Notes: generated from the sequence alone by a model not told the origin. A DNA stretch of 63,205 bases, filler included, from Dimargaris cristalligena (GCA_003614675.1; 6 parts of 6 records of this genome joined end to end with filler, not necessarily neighbours in it); one strand, 5' to 3'; counted from the whole stretch's first letter, positions 1-62,572 are shown. Translations and numbers: made by a program.

Positions 1-3000
1 GGCCGGCCTCTTCAAAATGTGACCAACTCAGTGGTGGATGACCAGCTTCAATTGGTGCCGGTGGGTGTTCCTGGTGAGTTGCTTATTGGGGGGATTGGTC
101 TTGCCCGCGGTTACCAAAACCTACCCGAACTAACGCGAGCTAAATTCATCGATAATCCCCATGGCCCCGGTCAAGTCTACCGGACTGGTGACCGTGTTCG
201 GTGGCTCCCCGAGGGCACAATCGAATTCCTGGGCCGTATTGACAACCAAGTTAAACTACGTGGGTTTCGCATTGAGCTCGAGGAAATTGAGCAGGTGGCA
301 GGGTGCTTCACCGGATTGAGTAATTGTGCAGCCAAAATAATCCAGAATACCTTGGTTCTGTATACCAGCCCTACTTCTTTAGATCAGGAATCTCTTAAGA
401 ACTTCTTATCCAGCCGCCTGTCTAAGCAAATGGTCCCTCAAATAATTGTCCCAGTGACTGAATTTAAGTTAACTGCTAATGGCAAGTTAGACCGCGATTC
501 TCTCCCGCCAATCGACCATCTTTTAAAGCAACACTCCACGACAGATTTTGAGGAACATCCATTATCAGGTATTGAGAGTAGCCTTCGACAGGTCTGGGCC
601 CAAGTCTTACAGAAGGACCCAAGTCAAATAACAGCTACAGACCATTTCTTTAAAATCGGTGGTGATTCAATCTCGGCTATTCTACTTGTGTCCAAGTTCC
701 AACAGCTGGGATACCAATTTATGGTCCCCTTGGTCTATCAGTACCCCAAACTAGAACAACAGGCCCAGTACCTTCAATATGAAACTAGCACAATAGCTGA
801 TATAGGCTTAGCCTACCAGGTCCAAGCCAAAGGAGATGTACCCCTCACACCCATTCAGCATTGGTTTTCCAAACTTCCATTTAAAAATCCTAGCCATTTT
901 AACCAATCCTTTTCTTTCAAGGTTGACCTCCATTTCCCACTATCCCATCCTACTCTTACCGATGCTATTGTTTCCTTACTTAACCATCATGATATTCTGC
1001 GAGCAAGATTCCAACTCGGTGATAATGGGCAGAGTTGGATTCAGTTGATCCCTACGGAGGTGGCCACAAACACCGATTTTCTGGTATTGGAGAAGACTGT
1101 GGACCCTGATGACTATTCAGCCTTTATTCTAGAAGTCCAATCGAGTCTCAATCTAATTACTGGCCCAGTAGTTGCTGCAGCACTTATCCACAACCCAGCT
1201 GACCTACTCAGTACCCAATTCTTCTTCACTATTCACCATATTCTGGTGGACTTAGTTTCCTGGAGGATACTCATTGAGGATTTAAATTCACTATTGCTTA
1301 GCAAACCCCTTCCACCAAAGACAATGTCGTTCCAAACCTGGGCTACCCAATTGGCTGATTACTGCAGTACTCTCTCCGCAGACATTTGGCCTACACAGAT
1401 GGATCCCAACCACCCAATCCCCGATATCTACTCTCTACTACCTCCACCAGAGATCAGTATTGAGGATTATCCTGTAGCCCGCCTCTCTGTGTCTTTGGAT
1501 TTTGATGCTAAGTCTACCAACACTCTTATTTTCCAGCTAGCCCCCCAATGGCGAGTTACCCCTCAAGATTTACTACTGGCCACATTTGCACACGCCTTTT
1601 CTACTACCATTGGAGTCAACCAGATATCATTGTGTATGGAGGGTCATGGTCGGGAACCCTGGGCTGCTGATCAAAATATCACTCGTACTGTAGGTTGGTT
1701 TACCTCCCCCTATCCATTGGTACTCCGAATCCAACCAGGACAGTCGCTCTTGGAGCTTTTGCAACATACAAAAGAGGCCTTACAGACAATTCCAGGCAAA
1801 GGATTCATTTACTCAGTAATCAAATACATGCCAGGTGTCAATACTGATGAGAGGTGTAAACTGATAGCTAAGATACCTGAGAGAATGGATGTTCAATTCA
1901 ATTACTTTGGTCAATTTACCAACTCAGGTACTCCCCAGAGTGGTGATCCACTGTCTATTGAATGGTCTAATTCCTTTGGACTACATGATTTTTCATCTCA
2001 GGACTTTGTCATTTTTGATCTCAACCCCATGCCTGCAATTGTTGATAACTCTCTCCGGTTGATTATGGAGTATAACCCCCGGGTTTACCACCAGGATATT
2101 ATTTCTAGGATTATGGCCAAATGGCACCATAATTTGGCTGAACTTACTAGCCTGGGTGTACAGTCTGAAAATATAATATCTGAGCCTTTGCTTACTAAGT
2201 ATGACTTCCCACACTTATCTCTCTCTGATACTGGGTTCCAGACTGTCTTGGCCCAAGTACACCAAAGAGACATTCCCCTAGCCCAGGTTGAAGATATATT
2301 TCCCTGTATTGCAGTCCAGGGCGGCCTTCTCATGAACTTATCTTCAGACCCATCAATGTACCTTGTCCAAATGGCCATGAAGCTAACTGGCCAACTTGAC
2401 TGTGATCAACTGATTCAGGCCTGGGCTTCTGTAGCCAACCAGCACTCTCCCCTGCGCACAGTATTCATTGAATCACCCAGTACTCTATCCCAGGGGTTCC
2501 TCCAAGTGGTGCTATCCTCTTTACCCACTTCCTGGACTATTGCTGTTCAGCCTCTTGATTCCCTTGAAACATTTTTTATTGAGAATCGACAGCAGGGATT
2601 CACCCTCCAAGAACACATGGTCCGCAATTTTGTGTTCCCCACTGCTGATAGCCAGGTTTATGATATTATTATTACTATCCACCACTCATTAATGGATGGC
2701 TGGTCATTACCCTTGCTCCTCCAGCAGTGGATGGTAGCCTACCACAATCCCAAATTGGCTGTATCCCCACCCCCTACCAGCTTTACAGCAGTTGTTAGAT
2801 ATATATGCCAATCAGATCCCACATTAGCTCAGGCATTTTGGACTGACTATCTACACAATGCTAAAGCTACACCAGCCCCCTTACTGTACCCAGATTATAT
2901 TGGTTCACCAGGTCATGCATCTTATTCAACACTACTCAATATTTCCAAAGCCCAACTACTCCAAACAACTCAAAATCTTGGTATATCAATAGCAACCCTA

Positions 3001-6000
3001 CTCCGGGCTGCTTATGCCTTAGTTTTAGGTCAACTACTTAACCAAGATGATGTGACTTTTGGTGTAATTCTATCAGGTCGAAATTTAAATATCCCTGCTA
3101 TAGGCCAAGTAATTGGGGCATGTACTAATACAGTACCATGCCGGGTTCACCTAAACAGCTCTCCTCTTGAAGTATGGCTACAATCTCTCCATAAGGACCA
3201 AGTAGACATGATTCCTTTTGAACACTCTCAACTTACTGATATTTTCCAGTGGAATAGATTAGGTCAGATTAAACCACTGTTCCATACACTCCTAGGTTTT
3301 GAGAACTTCCCTGACCTAGTTTCAAGCCAATCTAACAAAATTGCTCTATCAGATATTATTATACATGAGTATACCCATTATCCTCTAACTGTCAATTTTG
3401 TGGAACAGCCCTCCTTTATCCAAGTAAAGGTGTCTTACAGTACAGCTGTATACTCAGAGACTACAACAGCCCATCTAGTGGAAATGATCCAGGCAGTTCT
3501 AGAACAAATAGTAGTGTGTGATCCCCAGACCCCAATTAAACAAATCACTCTTAGTAACCCAATAGTGCAGCTATCAACAAATGACCAAATACACAATGTT
3601 TTCAGCCCTTTGTCTGTCCTAGGCTCTCAATCACTAGCTCAGGTTTGGGACAGTATTGTTACCAATTATCAAGACCATTTAGTCTACCAGAGGGATGACT
3701 CAGTACTATCAGTTAGTCAGCTCAATCTTCAGGCTGATTCCCTTATAATATCTACTAGCAATATAGTTACAACCTCTCCTCCAACTATTATGGCCATTGT
3801 GGAAGATATTGCCCAACTATTTAATTATTTAGTAGCAGCTATCAAAATGGATATTTGCCTGGTAGTTCAACCATATACCATAACTATTGATCAAATAGCC
3901 CAATGTTTAAAATTAACCAAGGCCCAAGTACTGTGGCTCCCAGACTCTTTCCCTGATGAGTTCCTAACTTACTTTCCTAAGAATACTAACCTAATCAAGT
4001 TACCAACTTATGGTACTACTGTATCCAGTTCCAATTCTGAGTCTACCCAACAGTATATGGCTAATACTAGTAGCCCTGGTATTAGTTTAAAGTTCATATC
4101 TAACTGGACCCCAACTGGACCTACACTACTTACTATTGACAGTACACAGGTCACCCATGCCATTGCCTTAGCTGAATCATTCTTCAGTAATAGGGATATA
4201 CTTACATATGATCCCTCATTAGATCTTGGGATTCCTGAATTATCATGGCTTACTCTATCATGTCTACTATTTAGTACTACTGTAGTATTACCACAGACTA
4301 TTAACCTAGGCCAATGTCATATTACCCCTGCCCATATACTTACCCAAGAAACCCAAAATCCTGACCAATTAGCACTTGTTAATCTGTCCCATATATTGCC
4401 ATCAAATATCATTCATTTAGATTGGCTATCACTTTCTTGTCTAGTCTATAATGGATCATTATTCCATGGGTACTGCATAGTACCTGGGAGTCAACTAGCT
4501 ACTTTCACTCTACCAATTATGGGTGATTCAGTAAGGGGATTTCTATTAGCAGCTGTGGATCCACAATGCTATCCCTGCCCTCCTGGGGTACTTGGCTACC
4601 TAACATTTTCTAATACTGATAACCTTAGTCATATTCAACAAAATGGAGACCTTGGCCTTGGCTACTATACTCCAGATAACCAAATTCACATTTTGGGCCC
4701 TGAATCCCAGAGGGTGAATCTCCAAGACCAGCAAGTACACCTTGGTATACTGGAGCAAGCTTTCCTTCAGGCTGGGGCTATTTATCCCAGGGCCCTAGTA
4801 TTGCCCAATGGAGAATTAGTAATTGTAGTTGATTCTGCAACTAAGGAGGAATTATCCCAGTTGCAGGCCATAATAGTTCCACCTATTATTCCTCAAGTAC
4901 TTACTCCTGATGTTCTTGTATCTACTAAGCAATTCCCCCATGTGGCTGAATATACTGGTCAGGCTAGGCAAAATATCTACAGCTTTGCCCAGGCATATCT
5001 TACTACACTTATACTACACTCAACTCTATCTCTATCAGAATCTGAGTGGTGGTTAGCTGTAGTTATTAATGAGCTACATTTACTCTACCAACCAATTACC
5101 AGTTCTCCTACTACCACCCCTCTACAGTCTATTGAGAATTTTAACCTAGCCCAATTAGAGTACTTACAACACTATATCTATCAGAAATATTGTATTAGAA
5201 TAGTACTAGGTGATTTAATTACAGTCAACAAACTCCAACCCTTAGCCAACTTTATTTCCAAGCAACTTAGTTATAATCAGATTACAGCTTTCAGTGGCAA
5301 TATCTGTAATATGATACCCAGCCCCCTGGTACTCCCATTTATTCATAGTCAGCCAGTTAATGATTATCAACAAAGGATTTGGTCCCTTAGCCATTTACAC
5401 CACTCTGTAGTAGATTTCTATCACAGCTGTACAATTTCTTTAACATCCACAATTCAGCTACCAACTATTCAAAAAACCATCAATCATATAGTTGCTACTT
5501 ATGAAGCTCTCCGGTGCCAATTTAACTTAACAACTGGTGTATTAACTTGCCACATTCTACCAACTATCCATATTAATGTAAAAGAGTACCAGAGTCCAGA
5601 CTATTATAAGTCAAGTATTAAGAACTTTAGTCCAGAAGATATTTATTTTGACCTTGAAAAGGGTGTGCTTATCCAGGCTAAACTATACCAGTATCCTAAC
5701 CCTTCTACTGGTAGTACTCAATCTCATGTATCCCTCTATATACATGAGATAGCTGGTAATACTGTCTTTTTTGATCAGATTGTTCATGAAATTTACCAAG
5801 ATTTATCTACCATTGAAATAGACTACACCCAAATTATACCTGCCAGATACAGTATTGAATACCAAGATCCCTCAAGTCAGGATCTGGAATACTGGCTATC
5901 ACTAATTAAAGATGCACCTACTAAGCTGGCCTTATACTTAGATAGACCCCACCCTCCAGTACCAACCCTACAATACTCCATGGTCAAATCTAAACTAAGC

Positions 6001-9000
6001 ACATCTTTGGTTACCTCAGTGTCTGGAATGGCCAATCCTGGATCAAACTCACCTGGTGAAAATTGGTTGGCAATATTATCCACCTTTCTTCATCAGATAA
6101 CTGGTCAAGATGAACTCCTTGTGGATTTTAGTGATTCATCTAGCCAATCAAGTACCAATAGGTTTGGGTTAAACATTAATTCCCTCTCAGCTCTACCAGT
6201 CTGGGTAGGGAGTGATTGGCCCACTAGTATCAGCCAATTAGCTAATGAACTACATAATCAGATCACTAAGTCATTGGATCACTATATGCCAAGCACTACT
6301 AGGTTGGCCCAACTCTTAGACTACTCCACAACTGACCAAATATTGGGCCTATCTAGGATCCACTTTTCAATCAACCCCAGCTCACCTAATGATTCCAGGT
6401 CTGGTCCTACTCAATACCACTATCCAACCAAACCCAAAACCATATTTACCTATGACATTGAGCTAATAGTCCAAACTAATTCAATTTCACCATGGTGCCA
6501 ATTGCACTATAACCTGGATGTTTTTGAACAATCAACAGCTGAGCGCCTATTGAAGAATTTTATTCATTATTCAAAATCCTGTATTAGTCCAAATCAGCAG
6601 TGGCCAACTACTTCTACTGTCTGTCCTGAAGAAGCTGAAATTTTACTTGAGGGTTTTGCTTTAGGAAAAGTTAGATCTGGTGAGCCTACAGCTAAGTCAC
6701 CTCAGGGGCCTTTAGAGCTATTCTGCAAGGCTGCTGGGATGTACCCTGATTCTATAGCTGCTGAGTTTGAAGACCAAACCTGGACCTACCAATACTTAAG
6801 TGACAGTGTTTGCAATGTTGCAGCAGGTCTACGGAGGGCATATGTCCAGCCTGGTGATAAGATTGGTGCTATTGTTACCAACCACCCCAATACACTGGTA
6901 GCAATATTGGCAACTTGGTATATTGGTGCTGTATATATACCCATGGATTCCAAGTTACCAAAGAAGCGTCAGCAATATATTTTAGAAGCAGCCTCATGCC
7001 AATGGGTTCTAAATGCCACAACTAAGGTTATCCAGTGGCCAGGTTCCCTGATTCTATCTGAACTATTAGAAGCTACTGAATGCACTAACAGTGGCTATAC
7101 GATCCATCAAAATACACCTGACGACCTTGCCTACATTATCTTTACATCTGGGTCAACTGGGCTTCCCAAGGGTGTTATAATAACACATAACAACATCAAT
7201 CATCACCTCAACAATCATATTTTCTATGATTTTCAACAATCAGGCACCCGAGTTATGGTGGGTGTCTCCCCCAGTTTTGATGTGTTTTTCCTTAATGCAT
7301 TAATGCCTATTTGCCACGGGTCTACTGTGGTCTTTCCTGGGGATAATTTAGTGGACACACTAAGCCAAGTGGATTCATCTTGCTTGGTACCATCAGTTCT
7401 CAGCCGACTTTGCCCCTCAGATTATCCAAACTTAAAAACCTTATGTTTGGCAGGTGAACCCCTCAGCCGTAAATTAGCTGACAGTTGGTCAGCTGTAACC
7501 ACCCTTTGGAATGGGTATGGCCCAACTGAGGCAACAGTTATTAGTCATTTAACCCAAGTAGCTGCTACTGGCTCAATCACCATTGGCTGCCCCATTCCCA
7601 ACTACCAGTGCTATATCCTAAACTCCTATATGCAGCTGGTACCCATTGGGACGGTGGGTGAAATTTACATTGGGGGTGTTGGTGTCAGTCCAGGCTATAT
7701 TAATCGACCTGATCTAAACCTAACCAAATTCCCAAAGAACCCTTTTACAGGTAAGGGCACACTGTATGCCACTGGTGACTTTGGTCGATGGCTACCCAAT
7801 GGTGAAGTAGAATGCTTGGGGCGAATGGATAACCAGGTAAAACTTCGGGGATTCCGGATTGAGCTGGATGAGATAGATTATTACATTTCCCAATTTCCAT
7901 CAATCCAAGCAAATGTCACTGTGGTCAGCAAGAATAATGACGACAAGGTTATAGTATCATATTTTGTACCACAAGCTTATGCAAATCAAACAAAATCAAC
8001 TGACATTGATCAAAGGTGTTACCACAGCAATACTTGCCTCATTTCCGATCTCCGAGGATTCTTAAAAGAACAACTTCCCAACTACAGCATTCCTAGTGTG
8101 TTTATACCACTTTCTGAGCTTCCACTATCAACAAATGGGAAAGTGGATAAGACCGCTCTTCCTTGCCACAAGGCTGCCTTAAAGTCTATGATAAGTCAAC
8201 AAGTGGACCCAGTCTCTGGGGGAATTGTTAGTATAGTAGAATTCGCTGACCAACTAAGAGAGTATAGTCCTACACAGAATACCCTTAATAACATTTGGCA
8301 GCAAACCCTTGGTCTGGATTCCATGATTCCCCTGCATACCAATTTCTTTGACTTAGGAGGCCATTCAATTTTAGCCACTCGGTTGGGCATTCAGGTTCGC
8401 AAGAGTTTTGGAATTGATATTCCAATTAGCTTGGTATTCCGGCAGCCCACTATTTATAGTATGGCTGCTGCAGTGGACCAGTTCAATCAAGCCGCCTCAA
8501 ATATTACAACTAATATATTGTCTATTAACAATGCTGTGGCTCGTACAGTTTCTTCTAAACATCCTCCAGTCCAATCTTCACCGAACCCAAGTACTCAATA
8601 CTCAAATGACCTTAATACGCTAGTTGGGCAACTTCCACCTCCATTGTCCACAATGCAGCTCAACCATAACAATGTACCATTTGTCTTTTCAGAACGAATC
8701 CGGACTGGGGAAGCCCCCATATTCTTCCTAACGGGGGCCACAGGCTTCCTGGGGGCCTTTATCCTAGCCCACCTACTAATACGCTTCCCAACGGCCACTG
8801 TGCTATGCGTAGTCCGTGCCCAATCTCCTGAGCATGCCTTTAATCGAATTAAGTCAAGCAGTATTAATCATTTGCTATGGCAATCCCAGTGGAATATCAT
8901 AGCATCTGAAACCGATTCTCAACTCGGCTGTAAAATTGGCTATGGTAGTAGACAGGTCCGTGTGGTTGTAGGAGACCTATCCCAACCACGTCTGGGAATT

Positions 9001-10116
9001 ACCACGGCTGAATGGCAGTCACTAGCACGGGATGTAGATGCCATTATCCATAATGGGGCATTGGTCCACTGGATGTATCCCTATAGCAAGTTCCGATCCC
9101 CTAATGTATTGGGCACTCTGGCAGCCATTGACCTGGCCACCACTGACTATGTTAAGCCACTACACTTTATCTCATCTCTCTCAGTCTTCAATAGTAGCCA
9201 CTATATCGAATTATCTAGGTCCAAAGATGATGTGGCACTATTTGAGGGCTTGTCTGTGAATTCTCCCTCATCAACATCTACCATACCCAGCGAGACCCAA
9301 TCCAGTATAAACTCTGGTATTCTAGAATCAGATGGCCTAGAAGGTAGTCGGCATGGCCTTCCCAGTGGTTATGATCAGAGTAAGTGGGTAGCTGATAAGC
9401 TTATTCTCGAGGCTCGGGCTCGTGGATATCCCTTCACCATCATTCGACCCGGATTTGTTGTGGGATCAAGCACAACAGGGGTGATCAATACTGACGATTT
9501 TCAGTGGCGCCTTGTTAAGGGATGTATCCAACTGGGAAAGGCGCCTGTCCTAGATAATGAGATTAATATGTGTCCGGTCGATTATATTGCTGAGTTGGTG
9601 GCCGAGGTGGTTGCTCAACCAGAAGCCCTGGACCTGGGAATATTTCATATTGAATCACCCACCCGGTTTAGCTATAGTGATATGTTTGGCCAACTCCGTC
9701 TATATGGATACAAAGTCGATTCGATACCCTACACTCTCTGGTGCAACCATTTAAAGGAGGCCACGGACAAGTCAATAGAGAATGCCCTTTACTCTGTCCT
9801 ACAGTTTGCCCAAGGTGATATGCCCAAGGACACCCGACTCCCTATTCTAGATACCAGCCATACCCAGGCCCTCTGCCAAATTGGGGGTATGAGTTGTCCA
9901 CCCATTTCTAGCTTGATTGGCCTCTATTTAGCGTATATGGTAAAAGTTGGATTTTTAACCCCACCGACCCTAAGTATACTTCCTGATGCTAGGGCAAGCT
10001 GTCAAGAGGTAACCACAGAAACCCCACCCAACTCTCACATGACAGTAACTCGACAGGCATTGCCCCAACTCCCCATGGAAGTGAGTGTGATGATCAACCG
10101 AAATAACCGAATTTAG
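1..10116 (+). CDS. Non-ribosomal peptide synthetase, 5'-partial: A(C-terminal part)-T-E-C-[degenerate A-T-C]-A-T-R (terminal thioester reductase)
   Basis: Intronless 3365-aa ORF that begins mid-A-domain at the contig edge. A motifs GELLIGG, YRTGD, QVKLRGFRIELEEI. T1 FFKIGGDS (~658). E domain HHILVDLVSW (~1234), EGHGRE, RTVGWFT, FNYFGQ. C domain HHSLMDGWS (~2680). Last A: YIIFTSGSTGLPKG (~7141), NGYGPTE. T2 FFDLGGHS (~8344). R domain TGATGFLG (~8731) and YDQSK (~9370). Confidence 0.96.
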   Translation, partial: GRPLQNVTNSVVDDQLQLVPVGVPGELLIGGIGLARGYQNLPELTRAKFIDNPHGPGQVYRTGDRVRWLPEGTIEFLGRIDNQVKLRGFRIELEEIEQVAGCFTGLSNCAAKIIQNTLVLYTSPTSLDQESLKNFLSSRLSKQMVPQIIVPVTEFKLTANGKLDRDSLPPIDHLLKQHSTTDFEEHPLSGIESSLRQVWAQVLQKDPSQITATDHFFKIGGDSISAILLVSKFQQLGYQFMVPLVYQYPKLEQQAQYLQYETSTIADIGLAYQVQAKGDVPLTPIQHWFSKLPFKNPSHFNQSFSFKVDLHFPLSHPTLTDAIVSLLNHHDILRARFQLGDNGQSWIQLIPTEVATNTDFLVLEKTVDPDDYSAFILEVQSSLNLITGPVVAAALIHNPADLLSTQFFFTIHHILVDLVSWRILIEDLNSLLLSKPLPPKTMSFQTWATQLADYCSTLSADIWPTQMDPNHPIPDIYSLLPPPEISIEDYPVARLSVSLDFDAKSTNTLIFQLAPQWRVTPQDLLLATFAHAFSTTIGVNQISLCMEGHGREPWAADQNITRTVGWFTSPYPLVLRIQPGQSLLELLQHTKEALQTIPGKGFIYSVIKYMPGVNTDERCKLIAKIPERMDVQFNYFGQFTNSGTPQSGDPLSIEWSNSFGLHDFSSQDFVIFDLNPMPAIVDNSLRLIMEYNPRVYHQDIISRIMAKWHHNLAELTSLGVQSENIISEPLLTKYDFPHLSLSDTGFQTVLAQVHQRDIPLAQVEDIFPCIAVQGGLLMNLSSDPSMYLVQMAMKLTGQLDCDQLIQAWASVANQHSPLRTVFIESPSTLSQGFLQVVLSSLPTSWTIAVQPLDSLETFFIENRQQGFTLQEHMVRNFVFPTADSQVYDIIITIHHSLMDGWSLPLLLQQWMVAYHNPKLAVSPPPTSFTAVVRYICQSDPTLAQAFWTDYLHNAKATPAPLLYPDYIGSPGHASYSTLLNISKAQLLQTTQNLGISIATLLRAAYALVLGQLLNQDDVTFGVILSGRNLNIPAIGQVIGACTNTVPCRVHLNSSPLEVWLQSLHKDQVDMIPFEHSQLTDIFQWNRLGQIKPLFHTLLGFENFPDLVSSQSNKIALSDIIIHEYTHYPLTVNFVEQPSFIQVKVSYSTAVYSETTTAHLVEMIQAVLEQIVVCDPQTPIKQITLSNPIVQLSTNDQIHNVFSPLSVLGSQSLAQVWDSIVTNYQDHLVYQRDDSVLSVSQLNLQADSLIISTSNIVTTSPPTIMAIVEDIAQLFNYLVAAIKMDICLVVQPYTITIDQIAQCLKLTKAQVLWLPDSFPDEFLTYFPKNTNLIKLPTYGTTVSSSNSESTQQYMANTSSPGISLKFISNWTPTGPTLLTIDSTQVTHAIALAESFFSNRDILTYDPSLDLGIPELSWLTLSCLLFSTTVVLPQTINLGQCHITPAHILTQETQNPDQLALVNLSHILPSNIIHLDWLSLSCLVYNGSLFHGYCIVPGSQLATFTLPIMGDSVRGFLLAAVDPQCYPCPPGVLGYLTFSNTDNLSHIQQNGDLGLGYYTPDNQIHILGPESQRVNLQDQQVHLGILEQAFLQAGAIYPRALVLPNGELVIVVDSATKEELSQLQAIIVPPIIPQVLTPDVLVSTKQFPHVAEYTGQARQNIYSFAQAYLTTLILHSTLSLSESEWWLAVVINELHLLYQPITSSPTTTPLQSIENFNLAQLEYLQHYIYQKYCIRIVLGDLITVNKLQPLANFISKQLSYNQITAFSGNICNMIPSPLVLPFIHSQPVNDYQQRIWSLSHLHHSVVDFYHSCTISLTSTIQLPTIQKTINHIVATYEALRCQFNLTTGVLTCHILPTIHINVKEYQSPDYYKSSIKNFSPEDIYFDLEKGVLIQAKLYQYPNPSTGSTQSHVSLYIHEIAGNTVFFDQIVHEIYQDLSTIEIDYTQIIPARYSIEYQDPSSQDLEYWLSLIKDAPTKLALYLDRPHPPVPTLQYSMVKSKLSTSLVTSVSGMANPGSNSPGENWLAILSTFLHQITGQDELLVDFSDSSSQSSTNRFGLNINSLSALPVWVGSDWPTSISQLANELHNQITKSLDHYMPSTTRLAQLLDYSTTDQILGLSRIHFSINPSSPNDSRSGPTQYHYPTKPKTIFTYDIELIVQTNSISPWCQLHYNLDVFEQSTAERLLKNFIHYSKSCISPNQQWPTTSTVCPEEAEILLEGFALGKVRSGEPTAKSPQGPLELFCKAAGMYPDSIAAEFEDQTWTYQYLSDSVCNVAAGLRRAYVQPGDKIGAIVTNHPNTLVAILATWYIGAVYIPMDSKLPKKRQQYILEAASCQWVLNATTKVIQWPGSLILSELLEATECTNSGYTIHQNTPDDLAYIIFTSGSTGLPKGVIITHNNINHHLNNHIFYDFQQSGTRVMVGVSPSFDVFFLNALMPICHGSTVVFPGDNLVDTLSQVDSSCLVPSVLSRLCPSDYPNLKTLCLAGEPLSRKLADSWSAVTTLWNGYGPTEATVISHLTQVAATGSITIGCPIPNYQCYILNSYMQLVPIGTVGEIYIGGVGVSPGYINRPDLNLTKFPKNPFTGKGTLYATGDFGRWLPNGEVECLGRMDNQVKLRGFRIELDEIDYYISQFPSIQANVTVVSKNNDDKVIVSYFVPQAYANQTKSTDIDQRCYHSNTCLISDLRGFLKEQLPNYSIPSVFIPLSELPLSTNGKVDKTALPCHKAALKSMISQQVDPVSGGIVSIVEFADQLREYSPTQNTLNNIWQQTLGLDSMIPLHTNFFDLGGHSILATRLGIQVRKSFGIDIPISLVFRQPTIYSMAAAVDQFNQAASNITTNILSINNAVARTVSSKHPPVQSSPNPSTQYSNDLNTLVGQLPPPLSTMQLNHNNVPFVFSERIRTGEAPIFFLTGATGFLGAFILAHLLIRFPTATVLCVVRAQSPEHAFNRIKSSSINHLLWQSQWNIIASETDSQLGCKIGYGSRQVRVVVGDLSQPRLGITTAEWQSLARDVDAIIHNGALVHWMYPYSKFRSPNVLGTLAAIDLATTDYVKPLHFISSLSVFNSSHYIELSRSKDDVALFEGLSVNSPSSTSTIPSETQSSINSGILESDGLEGSRHGLPSGYDQSKWVADKLILEARARGYPFTIIRPGFVVGSSTTGVINTDDFQWRLVKGCIQLGKAPVLDNEINMCPVDYIAELVAEVVAQPEALDLGIFHIESPTRFSYSDMFGQLRLYGYKVDSIPYTLWCNHLKEATDKSIENALYSVLQFAQGDMPKDTRLPILDTSHTQALCQIGGMSCPPISSLIGLYLAYMVKVGFLTPPTLSILPDARASCQEVTTETPPNSHMTVTRQALPQLPMEVSVMINRNNRI

Positions 10117-10401
10117 AGGATTGAGCATCAAGAGCGGGCTCTACAATTCATATACTCAGAAGTTGCAATACCTTATCATTACACTTGATCAATGCATTTT
10201 TTCTTGTCAATTCACATGCAATCATGAAATTATTGTATTCTAATCAAATAGAAAATAGAGGTTGTTATAATTCTGAAAATGATCAGAAAATGGTAGGTTT
10301 TTCAAAATATATTTGAATATGATTGTGGAAGTGTAAGTGGAAGTGCCATAAGTGGCTTTAACAAATGCCCGCATTTGTTTTTATTGAGATAAATATAAAT
10401 G

Positions 10402-10472
10402 TGTTGTGGTCACAATCAATACCACAAGGTAATATAGCCTGATAACCTTATCAGGGCCAACTGGAGCAGTCT
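10402..10472 (+). mobile_element. End of an LTR-like repeat (family A2), cut by the contig end
   Basis: Begins TGTTGTGGTCACAAT and is nearly identical to 31420-31490 on another contig. It shares the TGTTGTGGT terminus with the LTR at 32145. Confidence 0.75.
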
Positions 10473-10572
10473 NNNNNNNNNNNNNNNNNNNNNNNNNNNN
10501 NNNNNNNNNNNNNNNNTTAATTAATTAANNNNNNNNNNNNNNNNNNNNNNNNNNNNNNNNNNNNNNNNNNNN
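10473..10572. other. Artificial contig spacer (N44-TTAATTAATTAA-N44)
   Basis: 100-nt N run with a central six-frame stop linker, repeated identically five times in the window. Confidence 0.98.
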
Positions 10573-10738
10573 ATATTGGATTACTTTGGTTAAAAACTTT
10601 ATAAAGTTGGTTTTATTAATATTTTCATTTGAGTGACAAACCAGTTTGCCTGGAGAAGCCACCCTGCCCTTTTGATATATTTTTGTTGTTTATTTTAGTG
10701 GCCTGACACCACCACACTGTGACACCACTATTTACCCA

Positions 10739-10741
<3 letters not shown>

Positions 10742-10770
<29 letters not shown>
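10742..10770. repeat. (AT)n microsatellite
   Basis: Perfect AT dinucleotide run. Confidence 0.9.
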
Positions 10771-11387
10771 CTGCCTACACTGTGGCATACACAAAAGCTA
10801 ACAAAAAATATTATTCATTCCTTTATACTCATGGTTTGCATTAAAAAGCCCACCGTTTTTTCCTTGCTTCTAAAAGTCTGACCTATTTTTCAGTAGATTC
10901 CCAGTTATTCCATCTTGTTCCATTTTTTGACCTTTCTCTACATCCTTTTTCTTACACCTAGCAGCCCCTAAGGCTCTTAGGATGGCTACATAAGTAACCA
11001 GTGAATTCCTGCTTGTTTGAAAAATCAATCATCATTCATTTTATTTCAAACTCAAATTCCACAATTCCTTAAACTCAGTCCTGATTTTTTTATTGATTAT
11101 TTCTTATTATTTAAAACCACCGTTTCTTATATTTATTTTCAATAAAACTCTTGTGTCACTCATTATATCCTCCTCCCATCCTCCATCCAATCCACTGACC
11201 ACCCACCCCCTCCAAAACCCCACCATATCAACGTCCAATTCTGCCCTAGTCTCATCCCACTCTGTGAACCTCCCATCTTCTGCCACCAGGGAGCTGGCCA
11301 CCACAACTTCAGGCTGTGTTGATAAGGAGGCCACTGCCTCCTTGCGAATCCTGAAGGCTGCTAATAATAGGCTGGATGTCCCAGGTA

Positions 11388-18400: not shown

Positions 18401-21042
18401 TTTTGTGTAGGTATAATTCGGTAGTTCCGGATACTGGCATTTGGCAGAACTTTCCCGGACTTTCAACTTCAACTTCACGATCGATTGATCTCTTTCCATA
18501 GTTGCGCCTGGCTATTCGCAACAATAGGTTTTCTGGGTTGAGAATGTCTCCTCAGATACCTACATATACACCACCCAAGAGGGGCTGTTGGCCTAGTTGT
18601 GGAAGCGCACATGGAGGGGAATGCCTTGTGACTGGGGCTTGTGAACTATTTTCCCCATGCGCTTTTACTGACCCATTCCTTTGATGGGGGTTGGGTTGGG
18701 TTGTAAATAGGTACCCCCGATCTACTGGTCCCCATTTCCGCTTCCTTGCGACCTACATCCGACCCCCGCCGACTGGGTTGCGGGATAGGGGTTGGTCAAA
18801 ATTATAAGTATTTCTATTAGAATCATCACTGTGATTCAGGGGTACTTTACCCTGCCTTTCGTGGTTGCCTCCTCCCCACCTACCTACCTACCTACCATCG
18901 CCTCGAACACCCAAAAACAACACGATATGCCAACAGACTATCTTCAAGGGAAACAATACTATAATAATGTCAAGAACCTGGGTCAATGGGCGGGTTGAGG
19001 GAGGCGGGAAGGTGAGAAAAAGGAACATGGAAAAATCCTAAGGAGAACCGGAGATTGAAGGAGTAAACGAATAATGAACCAGGGCAGTGTTGGCCCCAGC
19101 TGTCCGGTAATGCAATGCAACCCTGCCTACCCGACATTGCCTCCCCCCCTGGGTTTGATTATAATTTGTAGTATAGTCTCTCTCTCTCTCTCTCTCCGCC
19201 AGTCGTGTTCATTTTAGGTATCTCCATCCCCCTGGAACAGATGATGACTGACCGAAATTAAACCAATAGTAATAAAAAATTGGGTTTGCTGAGGACTATA
19301 AGGAAGGCGCGGGAATAATAGATAAAAACGTCCCGAACGATTTCGCCCCTATGGTGTCCAACGGGCCCATTCACACTATCCCCTCCCACCCTTGGCATGG
19401 TATGGCACCGGCCTCCTTAACTATGGATCCGCTATATTTGGTTACCGCAATCTTGATTCGAATTTACCGTTCCATGGGTAATTGGGACCGGCCAAGTCCT
19501 CACCGAGTTTTTATCCACCCGGTTCGGTTCCCAGTTTACGGGACTTGTCGATTTAGCGCGCCGCGGATAGTAGTAGCGAGCGACATTCACTCCACGGGGC
19601 TGTAGCCGTTGCATAGTAAGTCGGCAGCCACCATGTCTGCCATTGGTCTTGGCCCGGCAAGCAGCAAAAATAATCAGTGGAACGGAGGTGGGCGATCAGC
19701 TGGAAGTGATGGTGAAAGGAGGAATGGGGTTAGATTGAAGCTTCCGTGGCCGGCTCCCCCCTCCCATTTTTCTCTCTCCATATATTAAAAGTGTGGTCAA
19801 ATTTGTAATTCCAAGGCTATTTTGATCCGTCGGTTTTTTTAAAGTACGGGAGAACTAACTTCAGTTCGACTGGCGAACGCCGAATGGTAGATTGTCGGTT
19901 TGGAACCCCTTCGCCATGCCGCGCTAATACTACAATATGCCCTGATGATGTCGCCTGATATTGACCCCTTACTAATGTGACCAGCTGGTGGTGGTGCAAT
20001 GCATCTTTTTTCTAATAACCTGATATCCACCGCTTACCCTCAACCTTGCGATCCCACTAAACTGTGCGTCGGTGTTGCGATACGAGAGAGGGGGAGAGAG
20101 AGAGTGCGTATGTTTATGTGTGCGGATGGGTGTGTATGGGTGAAGGTACCCCCATACGTACGTATTGCGACGTATCCATCTCACTGATGTCATCTTGATA
20201 TCCTCAGCCCGTTGCACTGCTAATGGGCCATTTCATTTTAAACTGCCAGTCACTCCCATACATTGCCACGATGTTGGTTGTACCCCCTTTCTTCTGCCCG
20301 CAACCCTAAGCTCACTGTCTCTGCCGTCGCCGCAGTGGAAGTTAGCTACAATACCCCCCCACCCCAATACCCCCCGACACTGGCCCCGGCGCCGCCTCGT
20401 TCAGCCAACACTGTTACCGGTACGTTGTTGCTCATAATAGGGGGGGGGTAAGTAATGATCCCAATGAATAGAATAGAAAGGTGTGTGCACGCGAGTGTGT
20501 GGGTATAAATCTATAGGTGTATTTGTATATTTCTTATTTTTCACCCACTTGACTTCAGCCAGGCTGGTCACCTGGGGTTCCGCCCCCCCCCCCTCCCTCA
20601 TCTCGCTAGCCGGGGATATCAATGGTGCCGGGATGAGCCGATTAAAGGGTGGCGAAGGAGGAAATAATGAAGCGGGAATTAGACCGCCTCGCTAGAAGGT
20701 AATGGGGTAGACGACGGACAAGTTGGGTGGCGGGGTGAATGAAGCAACGTTCACGCGCCGTCTGCTTCTCCCCCGCCCGCCGCCTTCATCGGCCGGTGGT
20801 CAATAAGAGCGATTTTCTAAATACATTGATCCCACTGGTTTAACAGTTGAAATTATTAATCAAACAACTGGGTGCGACCGCCATGTATAGGTGGAGAACA
20901 GGAAGGGTAGCGGTGCTATTAACGACAGACATGTGTTTGTTCACTTCCTAAAGCGATCATGGTGATGGGGGGGGGGGGGGGTTTGTCACCCCTTGGTTAC
21001 GAAACAAACCCCCCACTAGGGAAAATGGTGAAGGGGGCGACT

Positions 21043-21142
21043 NNNNNNNNNNNNNNNNNNNNNNNNNNNNNNNNNNNNNNNNNNNNTTAATTAATTAANN
21101 NNNNNNNNNNNNNNNNNNNNNNNNNNNNNNNNNNNNNNNNNN
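21043..21142. other. Artificial contig spacer
   Basis: N run with TTAATTAATTAA. Confidence 0.98.
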
Positions 21143-30698: not shown

Positions 30699-31419
30699 GG
30701 TAAGTGATGAATGTACAGGTCGTAGCAATGCTAATAGGAACAATGAGGCCGGAATTAGAGGGGGGGAGTGAAAACAAAGTCTATTGACCTATCGCAATGG
30801 GGGTATTCTTCGAGGTCCTAATCGGAGAAAGAGGTGGGAAGGGAAGAGAAGTGGAGAAATGGGGAAACAAGAGGAGGAGGAGGGTTACTTAGATCTTATC
30901 CTGAAGGACTTATGGAAGCGCAAGGGTGGAAGGCCGAAGCCACCCAAGGTAGCTTAGTCAGTCGTTGGTCTTCCATGTTGTCAGGGGAGCAATATTCCTT
31001 ATACCAGCAAAAGGGTTGGCGGGATGGGAAAAAACCTACACCATTACCAAATTAGGCCTATTGGCGGCTCTAATAATGCAGTCCGCCTTTCCCATGGCCC
31101 TGGTACTGACAGTTTAGTAAAGCGAACTACTAAAATCATAAAGTGGGCCTTGACCCAGGTTTATACATATATTACCAGTTGAAAATTGGACATTTAACAA
31201 CTGAGACCATGCTCATATGGGGGAGGCTCAGTAAGGCAGTATAACGAGAAATCCGCTAGATGAGGAAAATATTACTGGCTGAAAATGCATCTACCACCAA
31301 CTTGTTAACGTATTCAATAAATCCAAGTAAAGAGAATCCCTCAATCTCTTTATGGCCCGCCTCTCGTATTATAGCTTAGATATTATTCTTTAAGATCGGG
31401 AATTCTATTTATAATACTC

Positions 31420-31590
31420 TGTTGTGGTCACAATTAATACCACAAGGTAATATAGCCCGATAACCTTATCAGGGCCAACTGGAGCAGCCTCAGTCTAGTG
31501 GGAAAAACTAACTGGCTAAGGGAAACACGCACTTTGGCGGGGACAATTCTTATCTGATCTTCAGATAGGGACAACTAGGACAACCGGGGA
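31420..31590 (+). mobile_element. End of an LTR-like repeat (family A2), cut by the contig end
   Basis: Begins TGTTGTGGTCACAAT and matches 10402-10472. Confidence 0.75.
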
Positions 31591-31690
31591 NNNNNNNNNN
31601 NNNNNNNNNNNNNNNNNNNNNNNNNNNNNNNNNNTTAATTAATTAANNNNNNNNNNNNNNNNNNNNNNNNNNNNNNNNNNNNNNNNNNNN
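31591..31690. other. Artificial contig spacer
   Basis: N run with TTAATTAATTAA. Confidence 0.98.
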
Positions 31691-32574: not shown

Positions 32575-32646
32575 GGCTCGGTGGTTTAGTGGTATAATAC
32601 TCCCTTAGGGTGGGAGTGGTCCCGGGTTCGATTCCCGGCCGAGCCC
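32575..32646 (+). tRNA. tRNA-Pro (anticodon AGG)
   Basis: Acceptor stem GGCTCGG/CCGAGCC, anticodon arm CTCCC-TTAGGGT-GGGAG, T loop GGTTCGATTCC, followed by T-run terminator. Confidence 0.97.
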
Positions 32647-42131: not shown

Positions 42132-42231
42132 NNNNNNNNNNNNNNNNNNNNNNNNNNNNNNNNNNNNNNNNNNNNTTAATTAATTAANNNNNNNNNNNNN
42201 NNNNNNNNNNNNNNNNNNNNNNNNNNNNNNN
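42132..42231. other. Artificial contig spacer
   Basis: N run with TTAATTAATTAA. Confidence 0.98.
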
Positions 42232-51047: not shown

Positions 51048-51166
51048 AGTTGTGGCCATATGTTGGATTGTGCTCCGTATCCCGTTAGATCTGCGAAGAT
51101 AAGCTCCAATCAGTTAATTTAGTACTGAGGTGGGTGACCACTTGGGAATAGTTAATGCTACAACTT
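51048..51166 (+). rRNA. 5S rRNA gene, dispersed copy
   Basis: ~119 nt. Helix I AGTTGTGGC/GCTACAACT, GGCCATA, CCCGTTAGATC, AGTACT...TGGGTGACCA...GGGAA, followed by a T-run. Confidence 0.9.
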
Positions 51167-52344
51167 TTTCTATAATTTTATTATCTATAAGTTCTCAGTG
51201 TTAATAGTCTGGGGAGCTATCCACACTTTTTAGACGTCTATTATAAAAACAGCACTCAAGAATTAATCCGAGGAATTATAGTGAATCCTAACTGTGTTTA
51301 TTTATTTTGTAGGACTAAGAAAGAGCAGCATACTAGCCATAAGCAAGGGAAGTATACAATATATGTAATAAGCATTAGTAGTGAATCAACATTGGCATAA
51401 TGAAATAGGGTATTACTTAGGGGTCCAGGCCCCAACTTAGTAAGCCATTTACAGTTTTAAAAAATTCTATTTGGTTCCGACCCACAGGTCTGTCAGGCAG
51501 GTCGGCAGTCAGTGAGTGCCCATAGTAGGTCAGGTGTTGTGGGGAGGTTATAGATAGATTCACTAGCCACCTTGGTATGCAATTAGTTTAACCCAGCTGT
51601 ACCATGAACTACCTAATTACCCAGCTCTGTCATTCTGAACAATCCCAGTACCCCATCTATATTATATTCCAAGACCTTTATGAATAGGATTTACTTCCCT
51701 CATTTGGGCAGTTTCAAAATGTCTGTATATGTTCATAATTACTACTGTGCCTAAGTAAGAGAAACACCTGACTCAGCTATAACACATGAAATGTTACTTG
51801 GATTGTGTGCATTTTTTAAAAAAAAATTGTAACCCACTTATCTTATCACCAATTACTTATTCAAAGACTTGCAACTTAATGGGCTACCTTGTCATTGAGT
51901 ACCATGTCAGGTTCTGCTCATATGGACATTGTCATTAAACAGCTCAATGGAGGAGCATACCCTTAGTCATTGCAACACTGCCTGTTTGAACTAATTCAAA
52001 ACTTGTTTGATCCCCATATTGGCATGCACAGTGGGTTTAGCTGAAGCAGCCACTCTAGAACTATGACCATGGCTTTAAATTCTTGCAGTTTTTAACTACA
52101 GCTAACTTAGTTATACTTACCTAACCCTGCTTTGTGTACTGCCATGGACAGCTGAGCCAAGGCCACATAAGCACCCGTACCAGTCACCAATCCAAGAAGT
52201 AGTCATACTTTGGACAGATTTGAGGTCCCCAGATGATAGATGAGTTAATTCTATGGGAATAGTCCAGGGCTAAAAGTGTTATCCCATTTCTTTATACAAG
52301 CTGATTCTCCTTTTATTCAGCTTTCCAACTTATTATTTTATTTA

Positions 52345-52550
52345 TGTTGGCCTTCCTAATCTGACTTAATCCAGTCCTAACAATCACCTGTCCTTATTAG
52401 GCCTTATAGTGCCATATTAACCCTCCCATAGTCACCCCCAGTACTATGGGGTCATCTTTTATTAACTAACCCCACTCATTCCAACCCCAATGCTTTGCAC
52501 CCCAAACACTCAGCTTGCTGATCCAAGACTCTTCCAGTTCTCATGAGAGT
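52345..52550 (+). mobile_element. 5' part of an LTR (family B), interrupted by family C
   Basis: Starts TGTTGGCC, aligns with the 53011 and 61993 copies, and breaks off after CATGAGAGT. Confidence 0.8.
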
Positions 52551-52669
52551 TGTAAAGAACTGAACTCAAAACCTTGAAAACTGAACTTTATTCGAAAAGA
52601 TAGGTGATAAAAAAGGAAAGGTGATGATAGACTTGCTGTTCCAAGAGGTGGTAGCAAGTGGGAGTATTT
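52551..52669 (-). mobile_element. LTR end (family C) nested in the family B LTR
   Basis: Reverse complement of 21143-21265. Confidence 0.8.
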
Positions 52670-52769
52670 NNNNNNNNNNNNNNNNNNNNNNNNNNNNNNN
52701 NNNNNNNNNNNNNTTAATTAATTAANNNNNNNNNNNNNNNNNNNNNNNNNNNNNNNNNNNNNNNNNNNN
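52670..52769. other. Artificial contig spacer
   Basis: N run with TTAATTAATTAA. Confidence 0.98.
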
Positions 52770-53010
52770 CATCATAAAGTAAGTAAACCCTTTTCACAGC
52801 AGAAAACTGGCCAATGAGGGGCTGTGCTTAAGAAATTTTCTGAGCTGTCCAGGAATCTGGCAGGGGAAGATGCCCTTTTTGATATCTTTTCTTCTTTTTT
52901 AATGAAAACTAGCTCTGGGAAGGCCCTATTTGCTAGGTTAGTTAGGGAATCCCCCTTTTTTTAGTATTATTTTATCTGTAGTAGACTGCTTCCAATCTGC
53001 CAATCACCTT

Positions 53011-53596
53011 TATCAGCCTGCCTAATCCAACTTAATCTGGACCTAATGCTCACCCATCCTTATTAGGCCTTATAGTGCCATATTAACCCTCCCCTATAGT
53101 CACCCCTGGTACTATGGGGTTATCATTTATTATATAACCCCACTCCTTCCAACCCCAATACTTTGTATCCCAAATACTCAGCTTACTGATCCAAGACTCT
53201 TCCAGTTCCCATGAGAGTCTTCCCAATATGAAGTTGTCCAGTCAGACTCTTTTACCTATCCATACCCTAGCCTTACTAGTATTCCCTTGGGACCTCCCTC
53301 TGGAGTTGTCCCTGTGTATATATAACCAGGCCCCCACTGGGACTGGTTCAATTCCTTAGCTTATTCATATCCCCCAGTTTACCTCAATAAACTCTATATA
53401 CTTATTCCCCCTTATGCTAACTAGTAAGTGTGTCTGCTGCATGTCCCTGGTATTTACCTGTATCTGTCCTTTATTGGTTAGTATTATGCCCCATCCTAAT
53501 GCTAGTAGCTTGCTTGGCCGAGTCTAAGCCCCACCTACTGTTAGAAGCCTATCCTCGGGACTCTTGATGGACTAAGAGAGGTTAACCCAGGTAACA
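53011..53596 (+). mobile_element. Full-length LTR (family B)
   Basis: Colinear with 61993-62572, ends GGTTAACCCAGGTAACA, has internal TATA and AATAAA. No target-site duplication seen. Confidence 0.82.
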
Positions 53597-54356
53597 ATAT
53601 GACAAATTTTATGAGAAATATTCCACGCCTTTTGGGAAGTCAACTCCCAATTTATTATTTCATACTCATGTTAATGGCCATGTGTTGTGATGATATTATG
53701 ATGGTATTCAAACTTGTTAATGACTTTATGTATTATTTATAATGACCAATTTATGATCTCAGTTCAGGGAGCCCTCTTTCTGCAATGGAAAACAATATTT
53801 CATTCATAATTCCTATTTTCCTTCATGATTACTACTATTAAAAATAAAAACCAATACTCTATTTCTTCACTCAAAAGTACATAAACACTTAAAATTTCCT
53901 TTTCAATGTTGCGCCTCCCCATTTGTTCCTCTGGACCTAGCATCCCATCTTTGTCTGGCCTGGGTAGACTGCCATCCACGCCCCAGTTCTCTGCACTTGA
54001 GCAGGGTATGCCAACTCGTATTTCGAATCCTAGTGGTGGATTAGATGACCCCGACGCTAACACAAATGCATGGTGGAAAATAATTTGTAGCCATTAATTA
54101 TCCAGAATTAAATATTTATCGACTAGTTATTGGAGGCAATCTGATCCGACATTGGTCAGGCCGAATAAGTTAATTACCCGGGGATTTATATCACAGTTAG
54201 GGGCTAGTTCGCTTTCTGCTGTTTGGTGGAGACTGACATTGGTATCATTAACCGTTGATATGCGATAGATGGTGAATAATTTTACTTTATAACCTATTTT
54301 ACTGTTTTAACAAACCGCAACTGGGTCACGATAGACATGACAGTAATCCGACCAAA

Positions 54357-61992: not shown

Positions 61993-62572
61993 TATTAGCC
62001 CTCCTAATCTAACTTAATCCAGACTTAATGATTGTCTACCCTTATTAGGCCTTATAGCACCATAGTAACCCTCCCATAGTTACCCCTGGTACTATGGGAT
62101 CATCATTTATTATATAACTATTCTCCTTCCAGCCCCAATGCTTTGCACAAAATACTCAGCCTACTAATATGAAGACTCTTCTGGTTCCCATGAGAGTCTT
62201 CCAGATATGAAGCCCATCTGGTTATCTATTTATCTATACTATAGTCTAGTAGCATCTCCCCTTGGGACCTCCCTCTGGAGCTATCCCTGCATATATATAG
62301 CTGGGCCCCCTTAGGACTGGTTAGATTCCCTATCTTATTCTTATCCCCTAGTTTACCCTAATAAACTCTCTATATGCTTACCCCCTTGTACTAACCAGTA
62401 AGTATGCCTACTGCATGTCCCTTGTATAATCCAAATGCCTAAGCCTTACTAGTTAGTGCTATGCCCCCATCCTAATACTAGTAGCCCACTTGGCTGAGTC
62501 TAGGCCCTGCCTACCATTAGAAGCCTATCCTTGGGACTCTTGATGGACTAAGAGTGGTTAACCCAGGTGACA
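61993..62572 (+). mobile_element. Solo LTR (family B) with 5-bp target-site duplication CTCCC
   Basis: CTCCC at 61988-61992 and 62573-62577 flanks a 580-bp repeat ending GGTGACA. Confidence 0.88.

Follow-up and report, generated by a model that had tools for sequence, protein, structure and literature searches.

In Neurospora-type repeat-induced point mutation (RIP), which reportedly leaks into repeat-adjacent genes and has diversified effectors in Leptosphaeria, duplicated or repeat-adjacent sequence is said to undergo C-to-T/G-to-A transitions with CpA as the target. A TCG-targeted hypermutation of transposons reportedly acts in Pucciniomycotina (Microbotryum, rusts). Degenerate adenylation domains occur inside fungal nonribosomal peptide synthetases (NRPSs), for instance in the ferrichrome-type siderophore synthetases. 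Here we describe an NRPS gene of the mould-parasitic fungus Dimargaris cristalligena (Zoopagomycota, Dimargaritales; GCA_003614675.1) which has lost practically all CpG dinucleotides over 3.4 kb of its interior and nevertheless keeps its reading frame open. The gene fills most of the first contig in a window of 63,205 nt, the window being the whole stretch of DNA analysed (Table 1).

In passages of two reviews, CpG maintenance methylation of the DNMT1-RFD/DNMT5 type on transposon-rich DNA is described for Basidiomycota and RIP is placed in Ascomycota (PMC7862722, PMC13297926). For D. cristalligena 27 NRPS genes are reported; they form two lineage-specific expansions with modular synteny, and most of them occupy a short contig by themselves (Ahrendt et al. 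2018, PMC6784888). The count given for Dimargaritales is 25-89 NRPS or NRPS-like genes (Reynolds et al. 2023, PMC9866270). The gene described here belongs to this expansion. Passages of these two papers mention neither CpG depletion nor a dead module nor compositional subclasses (PMC6784888, PMC9866270), CpG depletion of these genes is likewise absent from the review passages, and our literature searches returned no report on 5-methylcytosine (5mC) in Dimargaritales and none on CpG depletion or 5mC in NRPS genes of Dimargaris or Kickxellomycotina.

The window consists of six whole, size-sorted draft contigs (10472, 10470, 10448, 10441, 10438 and 10436 nt), the NRPS contig being the first. The linkers between them join unlinked contigs and therefore any inference from seemingly neighbouring genes across a linker is invalid. 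The housekeeping genes which a first-pass annotation had treated as neighbours of the NRPS gene lie on other contigs and were used as same-assembly controls only; they include TRAPPC9, Spb1, NDUFS2, Pex24, an XPG/FEN1-type nuclease and OTCase. Within the NRPS gene, CG dinucleotides are found at 3142, 5512 and 6544 with no others in between, so that an exact count agrees with the earlier impression of essentially one CG (~5512) between ~3150 and ~6540. The two resulting gaps, 2370 and 1032 nt long, rank first and third among the distances between successive CpGs of the window, the median of which is 14 nt. The interval 3150-6540 has a GC content of 0.391 and a single CpG, corresponding to an observed/expected ratio (o/e) of 0.008 at a GpC o/e of 0.84. 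Logan contigs from three public DNA runs match the stretch with 0 differences, and those from a run belonging to another study deviate from it at 2-4 places per contig. Moreover, contigs 1 and 3 end in the same 80-nt repeat, which ties the NRPS contig to the rest of the assembly, and an NDUFS2 exon on another contig shows 88-89% identity to Dispira proteins.

As a null expectation the synonymous codons of the same 1130 residues were resampled (2000 draws per scheme). The codon usage of the control genes yields 168 ± 10 CpGs and that of the ends of the NRPS open reading frame (ORF) 90 ± 7.5. With the codon usage of the core itself, for which only CpGs at codon junctions are possible, 44 ± 6 are expected with a minimum of 26. 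One CpG is observed in all, and none at a junction. The blank thus lies far below what GC content and codon usage predict under all three schemes, and is due neither to chance nor to codon usage. The ORF ends do hold CpGs as had been noted, but they are depleted as well, with a CpG o/e of 0.28-0.55 compared to 0.68-1.06 in control exons.

At silent sites the loss extends further than the blank. We determined the fraction of C among codons with a pyrimidine in third position, separately for those followed by G (NNY|G) and those followed by A, C or T (NNY|H). For NNY|G it is 0.00 in codons 801-2200, ≤0.03 in codons 601-2600 and 0.12-0.30 at the ORF ends, whereas for NNY|H it is 0.37-0.60 in the ORF. 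No NCG codon is found in codons 601-2200. Ten Pfam-confirmed control exons from the other contigs show no CpG avoidance (NNY|G 0.67 vs NNY|H 0.65); here NCG accounts for 19% of NCN, and 93% of the Arg codons are CGN (AGR: 16 of 235). Silent-site loss is therefore saturated from ~1800 to ~7800 and partial over the whole ORF, and the borders 3150-6540 are not the edge of a mutational process. In the saturated flanks (1800-3142 and 6544-7800) those Arg residues which are conserved in the relative P0002 are encoded by 14 CGN and 3 AGR codons, and the surviving CpGs are mostly such CGN codons. The borders thus delimit a region, in the dead A-T-C module described below, where selection no longer preserves Arg CGN codons. 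The Arg codons of the hole are 11 AGG, 4 AGA and 1 CGG. Its conserved Arg residues comprise three encoded by AGG and the CGG-encoded Arg 1838; if the border codon of aa 1048 is included, the five conserved Arg residues of the core are encoded by 3 AGG and 2 CGG.

CpG is the sole depleted dinucleotide of all 16, with an o/e of 0.01 in the core, 0.17 in the saturated flanks and 0.46 at the ORF ends; the CpG-poor repeats of the window have 0.08 and the rest of the window 0.83. In the core GC is at 0.84 and every other non-CpG dinucleotide at ≥0.84. CA (1.14) and TG (1.16) show a modest and symmetric rise over the rest of the window (0.97 and 1.00). CpG alone being depleted and TpG and CpA being raised symmetrically, a CpG-specific loss of the transition type, as proposed in the first-pass annotation, is borne out. 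The gene in this way exhibits sequence features expected of decay by 5mC deamination, namely depletion restricted to CpG, a symmetric excess of TpG and CpA and loss at silent sites regardless of codon usage.

The encoded protein has changed in the corresponding direction. Compared to P0002 (2601 aligned residues) R>Q/H is found 47 times against 6 in reverse, and the first-position class GNN>ANN (V>I/M, A>T, D>N, E>K, G>S/R) 103 times against 58, in line with the predicted direction of replacement. Replacements of the non-CpG C>T type are balanced (64 vs 65), and R>C/W occurs 2 times. At the 53 core positions where P0002 has Arg, the present protein has R (4), Q (16), H (8), Y (6), W (1), C (0) and other residues (18). 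The core is indeed poor in Arg (1.5% vs 5.0% in the aligned P0002) and rich in Gln (7.8 vs 5.2) and Ile (9.0 vs 5.2); the supposed richness in His and Thr comes down to marginally higher values (3.6 vs 3.3 and 8.4 vs 7.7). That C, W and stop outcomes are scarce is most readily explained by selection and not by strand bias, because silent routes are saturated on both strands. That nonsense changes are removed by selection while the ORF stays open also agrees with a second NRPS fragment on contig 2. This fragment is more mildly depleted (CpG o/e 0.64) and contains six in-frame stops (5 TGA, 1 TAG) in 347 codons, compared to none in the 3371 codons of the present ORF. One of its TGA codons corresponds to Arg in 4/4 aligned D. 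cristalligena paralogues.

According to Pfam (Condensation three times, AMP-binding twice with one match cut by the contig end, PP-binding twice, NAD_binding_4) the ORF has the modular order of adenylation (A), thiolation (T) and condensation (C) domains together with the releasing domain, here a reductase (R), of an NRPS. Its layout is A (C-terminal end)-T-C-C-(dead A-T)-C (degenerate)-A-T-R. C2, A3, T3 and R have kept their catalytic motifs, and the CpG-free stretch starts within the C-terminal part of C2. Named NRPS relatives are found in Dimargaritales only (Dimargaris cristalligena, Dispira parvispora and Tieghemiomyces parasiticus). The public gene model P0206 (979 aa; window 1-2934) follows the ORF to residue 971 and continues with 8 unrelated residues, leaving the CpG-free part and all downstream sequence outside. 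As the model ends just before the hole, decayed NRPS genes of this family are probably under-annotated and under-counted.

For aa 1201-1800 no Pfam match is obtained, even at E ≤ 1. A HMMER search with aa 1191-1810 against 1.84 billion representative proteins gave just 14 matches at E ≤ 0.001, the five strongest of which are all D. cristalligena NRPSs. When the core was compared by BLASTP with the functional A3 domain, only insignificant fragments were returned, and phmmer against PDB sequences gave only a weak match to Txo2 (E 0.025). Because these single-sequence searches were insignificant or weak, the A-T homology of the region was shown through the family profile. The latter is collinear with a functional A-T profile (hhalign probability 99.8, E 2e-27, 519 columns). 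An AlphaFold model, which is supportive only given its mean predicted local distance difference test score (pLDDT) of 59.6, has the NRPS adenylation structures LgrA, Txo2 and GrsA as top fold matches (E 1e-14 to 3e-16, template-modelling score 0.3-0.4). Functional A-T didomains carry the core motifs A3 (TSGSTGxPKG) and A8 and the serine of the carrier motif GGxS. In the relic the nucleotide-binding A3 motif, the A8 region and the carrier-Ser motif are replaced, with ISNWTPTGPT at the place of A3. It scores 3 bits against a hidden Markov model of functional A-T and does not classify as such.

The following condensation domain (aa 1808-2215) lacks the HHxxxDG of functional condensation domains as well. 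The motif reads HEIAGN at aa 1915, and it is degenerate in 7/7 aligned family sequences, i.e. this copy and six relatives. Identity to P0002 per 100 residues is 42-78% in aa 1-1200, 20-41% in aa 1200-2200 and 43-68% in aa 2200-2700, with few gaps across ~2700 residues. The relic being shared by the family and the C3 motif being degenerate in all aligned relatives argues that aa ~1190-2215 represent an old, family-wide dead module composed of a relic A-T didomain and a degenerate C domain. Like other degenerate A domains of fungal NRPSs, the relic has lost its core motifs and keeps its position in the assembly line and, as far as predicted by the model, its fold. It differs from them in that the carrier serine and the next C motif are degenerate too, in the reductase end of the enzyme and in the restriction of the family to Dimargaritales.

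The NRPS family is multi-copy, as had been presumed. In each of the four runs examined, contigs with 80-95% similarity extend over much of the ORF (run X1: 86 of 134 aligned contigs <99% alike, many of them 80-95%), named paralogues reach 77-90% amino-acid identity, and the 27 NRPS genes reported for the species (PMC6784888) fit with this. An Arg-poor group is formed by the window copy and the D. cristalligena fragments P0210, P0212, P0214 and P0215, with 1.8-3.3% Arg and a (Q+H)/R ratio of 3.2-5.5. P0210 is 89.6% identical to the window copy over aa 748-1160, the other three 76-79%. Sixteen other Dimargaris NRPS proteins or fragments have 3.8-5.7% Arg and a ratio of 1.4-2.75, even though partners with 80-85% identity exist for several of them. 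Judged by protein composition, the decay thus appears to mark one clade and not every duplicated NRPS.

The Arg-poor group shares R>Q/H replacements at aa 754, 755 and 865; those at aa 803, 864, 1002, 1011 and 1048 are copy-specific. At aa 864 three copies have Q and P0215 has W, the two alternative products of CGG. The combination of shared and copy-specific sites argues that the decay began before the duplications within this group and continued independently afterwards. Polarised by outgroups, the differences to P0210 comprise 19 derived in the window copy, 29 derived in P0210 and 29 ambiguous ones. Only 3 (window copy) and 4 (P0210) of the polarised changes are compatible with CpG, so most of the shared signature is older than this split. 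At the DNA level, a sample of 40 of 1937 differing places between paralogues has 6 which involve CpG in either copy, too few places and contigs to be used; 8 of its 16 C>T/G>A changes are in CpA/TpG context. The kinds of change in run X1 (C>T 283, T>C 222, G>A 224, A>G 227, transversions 479) indicate no T/A excess in the window copy over the similar contigs. Compared to P0001, P0210 is 89.6% identical in aa 748-1160 and just 56% in aa 1-426, which suggests recombination or gene conversion among family members.

Taken together our data favour, with a probability of roughly 0.6, a methylation-type CpG decay in one NRPS clade and in repeats that is filtered by purifying selection. The stretch is part of a real, selectively maintained Dimargaritales NRPS gene, the closest named proteins of which are from Dimargaris cristalligena. 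A long-lasting, CpG-specific C-to-T/G-to-A pressure, as expected from deamination of 5mC in CpG-methylated, repeat-associated DNA, would have acted on the whole gene, on at least four close paralogues and on dispersed repeats. Silent CpGs would have been lost throughout the gene interior, and Arg CGN codons kept only at those sites of the conserved C, A, T and R domains that require arginine. CGA>TGA outcomes would have been purged because the downstream C-A-T-R domains must stay translated, and among the non-silent changes mainly mild ones (R>Q/H, V>I, A>T, D>N, E>K, G>S) would have become fixed. The total blank would arise where this pressure meets the ancient dead module with its few protected Arg residues, mostly encoded by AGG and once by CGG; that 3.4 kb are fully CpG-free may be explained by the little Arg constraint which the dead module offers. 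The interpretation in the first-pass annotation, a methylation-driven or RIP-like process on multi-copy NRPS modules with selection against nonsense changes, is partly supported by these results.

With the 5mC decay of fungal repeats the locus shares a CpG-specific, strand-symmetric loss with gain of TpG and CpA, the same signature in repeats and untouched ordinary genes. It differs by residing in a Zoopagomycota (Dimargaritales) fungus and by its target, a long open gene with a paralogue clade instead of transposons only. If 5mC is confirmed, the gene would testify to CpG methylation that has acted over a long time on a gene clade of Zoopagomycota which is selected and translated. It would show mutation pressure and domain-level constraint jointly sculpting an NRPS, and the CpG map could then read out which parts of the assembly line still matter.

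What the data show is the CpG specificity and the extent of the loss, the direction of the replacements, the filtering by selection, the dead module and the distribution over the clade. Several points weigh against this explanation. The reason why this clade should be the target is, like 5mC as the cause, something we infer, for 5mC from the mutational signature alone. In the sections of a review, early-diverging fungi are described as dominated by N6-methyladenine (6mA), with 5mC mostly on repeats and gene-body 5mC largely lost (PMC13297926), and hence a methylated, still functional gene would be unusual. The depletion is deepest in mid-gene and not beside the 3' repeat, which therefore does not fit a simple spreading from the latter. 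Third-position C before non-G is lower in the core than elsewhere in the gene (0.37-0.42 vs 0.45-0.60), so some of the AT drift is not CpG-specific. Finally, the polarity of the changes is derived at the protein level, with a single, more distant paralogue or orthologue as reference.

A farther-reaching version, which we regard as unlikely, is that in the early-diverging Dimargaritales one clade of the NRPS expansion has acquired a CpG-methylated state that is heritable, or else a CpG-specific mutator triggered by duplication, which passes to each new duplicate and diversifies the enzymes. If true, the clade would possess an inherent means of diversifying its secondary-metabolite enzymes (Arg to Gln/His, Val to Ile, Ala to Thr) with frames kept open by selection, and the signature would not be a mere silencing scar.

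Equally improbable appears a homology-triggered process resembling RIP or methylation induced premeiotically (MIP), which would mutate, or first methylate and afterwards mutate, the CpGs of duplicated NRPS DNA in bursts during the sexual cycle, the hole being the heaviest-struck part of a duplicate. The family is multi-copy in the DNA of run X1, a clade of close paralogues (77-90% amino-acid identity) carries the signature with copy-specific changes after duplication, repeats share the CpG signature and five of the six stops in the contig-2 fragment are TGA. As in Neurospora RIP, C-to-T/G-to-A transitions affect duplicated or repeat-adjacent sequence, a family member is broken by premature stops, and amino-acid change in a family of the secondary-metabolism/virulence type is a possible by-product. 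However, the target is CpG and not CpA, and the RIP index gives no classical signature: (CpA+TpG)/(ApC+GpT) is 1.17 in the CpG-poor stretch and thus not lowered, CpA and TpG are raised instead of depleted, and TpA is merely 1.13. This copy has no stops. RIP should strike every duplicated stretch beyond a threshold of similarity, but not all duplicates appear to be struck, judging from the family pairs of 80-85% amino-acid identity without Arg depletion. Nor does the depletion track copy number as initially assumed. Cover by contigs ≥80% alike, which as summed contig depth measures similar contigs and not copy number, is highest at nt 1-3150 and lowest at 3501-4550 within the hole; per bin, higher cover goes with a higher CpG o/e (Spearman 0.51, p 0.005 in run X5; 0.28, not significant, in run X3). 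That 3/5 conserved core Arg residues are encoded by AGG, aa 1048 included, required transversions and time and thus points to slow change, not to a burst. With the Pucciniomycotina hypermutation the locus has in common a C-to-T change in CpG context of repeated DNA outside Ascomycota, but its surviving CpGs are not depleted in TCG/CGA. T precedes the surviving CG in 0.36 of cases at the ORF ends (n=99) and 0.32 in the flanks (n=19), compared to 0.27 in the controls; at saturation, as in the core, the context is uninformative. RID, moreover, is described as Ascomycota-restricted in a review passage (PMC13297926).

Somewhat less likely still is a gene-conversion mosaic, in which a uniform decay was followed by refreshment of the conserved ends from less-decayed paralogues, the diverged dead module being unconvertible. 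The distribution of cover and its positive relation to CpG o/e would fit, with the reservation on summed depth made above, and so would the mosaic-like identity of P0210 (89.6% vs 56%). Such a mosaic accounts for the gradient and not for the origin of the decay, though, and silent CpGs are already gone at nt 1800-3150 despite plentiful similar contigs. Selection on Arg codons accounts for most of the gradient in total CpG, to which gene conversion may contribute.

We consider it very unlikely that the gene died recently and that its frame is open by luck, CpG decay seldom creating stops. CpG transitions do make stops from CGA only, a loss of function could be read from the dead module and the degenerate C3 motif, and the public gene model stops at aa 971. 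No RNA run was listed as containing the sequence, which speaks for neither side. On the other hand, CGA makes up 15 of the 46 CGN codons at the ORF ends, with the 53 Arg positions of P0002 ~17 CGA codons were presumably lost from the core, and half of these would be expected to give TGA under neutral decay, which would put the chance of an open frame at ~1e-5. R>C/W is found 2 times compared to 47 of R>Q/H, indels relative to P0002 are few over 2700 residues, and C2, A3, T3 and R retain their motifs although silent decay is saturated. Dead module and degenerate C3 motif, in turn, are old and family-wide. A mere bias in composition or codon usage, in a gene that would be AT-rich and weakly expressed and free of CpG-targeted mutation, might be read from its GC content (0.36-0.47 vs 0.45-0.60 in control exons) and its share of C-ending codons (0.37-0.55 vs 0.65) but is next to untenable, as GpC is not depleted (0.84) and resampling with the codon usage of the core predicts 44 ± 6 junction CpGs where 0 are found, which refutes it unless selection acts against CpG itself.

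Table 1. Features of the NRPS contig and of the remaining window (positions counted from the first nucleotide of the window).
Feature	Position	Strand	Remarks
NRPS ORF, 5' end cut by contig end	1..10116	+	3371 codons, stop 10114-10116, no internal stop
Carrier (PP-binding) domain 1, aa 195-258	583..774	+	E 2.6e-12
Condensation-family domain 1 (C1), aa 278-719	832..2157	+	Pfam
Zone of saturated silent CpG loss	1801..7800	+	C fraction NNY|G 0.00-0.03 vs NNY|H 0.37-0.55
Condensation domain 2 (C2), aa 764-1185	2290..3555	+	HHSLMDG intact at aa 894
CpG-free stretch	3143..6543	+	sole CG at 5512, CGG codon of Arg 1838
Relic adenylation-thiolation didomain, aa 1209-1755	3625..5265	+	collinear with functional A-T; no Pfam match
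Condensation domain 3 (C3), aa 1808-2215	5422..6645	+	weak match, 68 bits; HHxxxDG degenerate
CGG of Arg 1838, conserved C-domain motif EALRCQF	5512..5514	+	lone surviving CpG of the stretch
Adenylation domain 3 (A3), well conserved	6727..8142	+	AMP-binding aa 2243-2566, AMP-binding_C to aa 2714
Carrier domain 3 (T3), aa 2762-2825	8284..8475	+	Pfam
Terminal reductase (R, NAD_binding_4), aa 2910-3199	8728..9597	+	E 1.5e-65
CpG-poor high-copy repeat, 3' end of contig 1, directly behind NRPS stop	10151..10472		sequence repeat
Five contig linkers, 44N-TTAATTAATTAA-44N	10473-10572, 21043-21142, 31591-31690, 42132-42231, 52670-52769		six-frame stop linker
AT-rich, CpG-poor stretch by the broken NRPS fragment	10573..11121		GC 0.32, 1 CpG
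Second NRPS family member, N-terminal, aa 13-347 of relatives, contig 2	11389..12429	-	335 residues
CpG-poor dispersed repeats, ends of contigs 5 and 6	51269..53912		linker 52670-52769 inside span
CpG-poor repeat, end of contig 6	61892..63205		80-88% identity to 53329-53596

The pooled CpG-poor repeats of the window contain 14 CpGs in 5625 nt (o/e 0.08). The statement that long terminal repeats (LTRs) show the same depletion as the NRPS gene holds insofar as CpG-poor repeats exist; their assignment to LTRs gained no support. Among 20 ORFs of these regions no retroelement domain was found, the sole match being an AMP-binding relic which exposed the NRPS fragment on contig 2. The repeat pair on the last contig was considered as the two LTRs of one element and rejected, as it flanks ordinary genes (SMN-like, XPG/FEN1-type and Pex24). 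The copies at 52347-53600, 61995-62572 and 62895-63000 are dispersed, CpG-poor and 80-91% alike, in direct and inverted orientation. The part of the contig-1 repeat at 10393-10472 has 91% identity to 31411-31490 at the end of contig 3, and many loose-ended contigs accumulate at 10400-10470 in all four runs. On contig 2, NRPS similarity stops abruptly at 11389, beside the AT-rich, CpG-poor stretch.

An (AT)n microsatellite is located at 10742-10770 near the start of contig 2, and a G run of ~16 nt at 20967-20982 near its end. Contig 4 carries a tRNA gene at 32575-32646. A 5S rRNA gene (93 bits) lies at 51048-51166, directly before the CpG-poor repeat block of contig 5.

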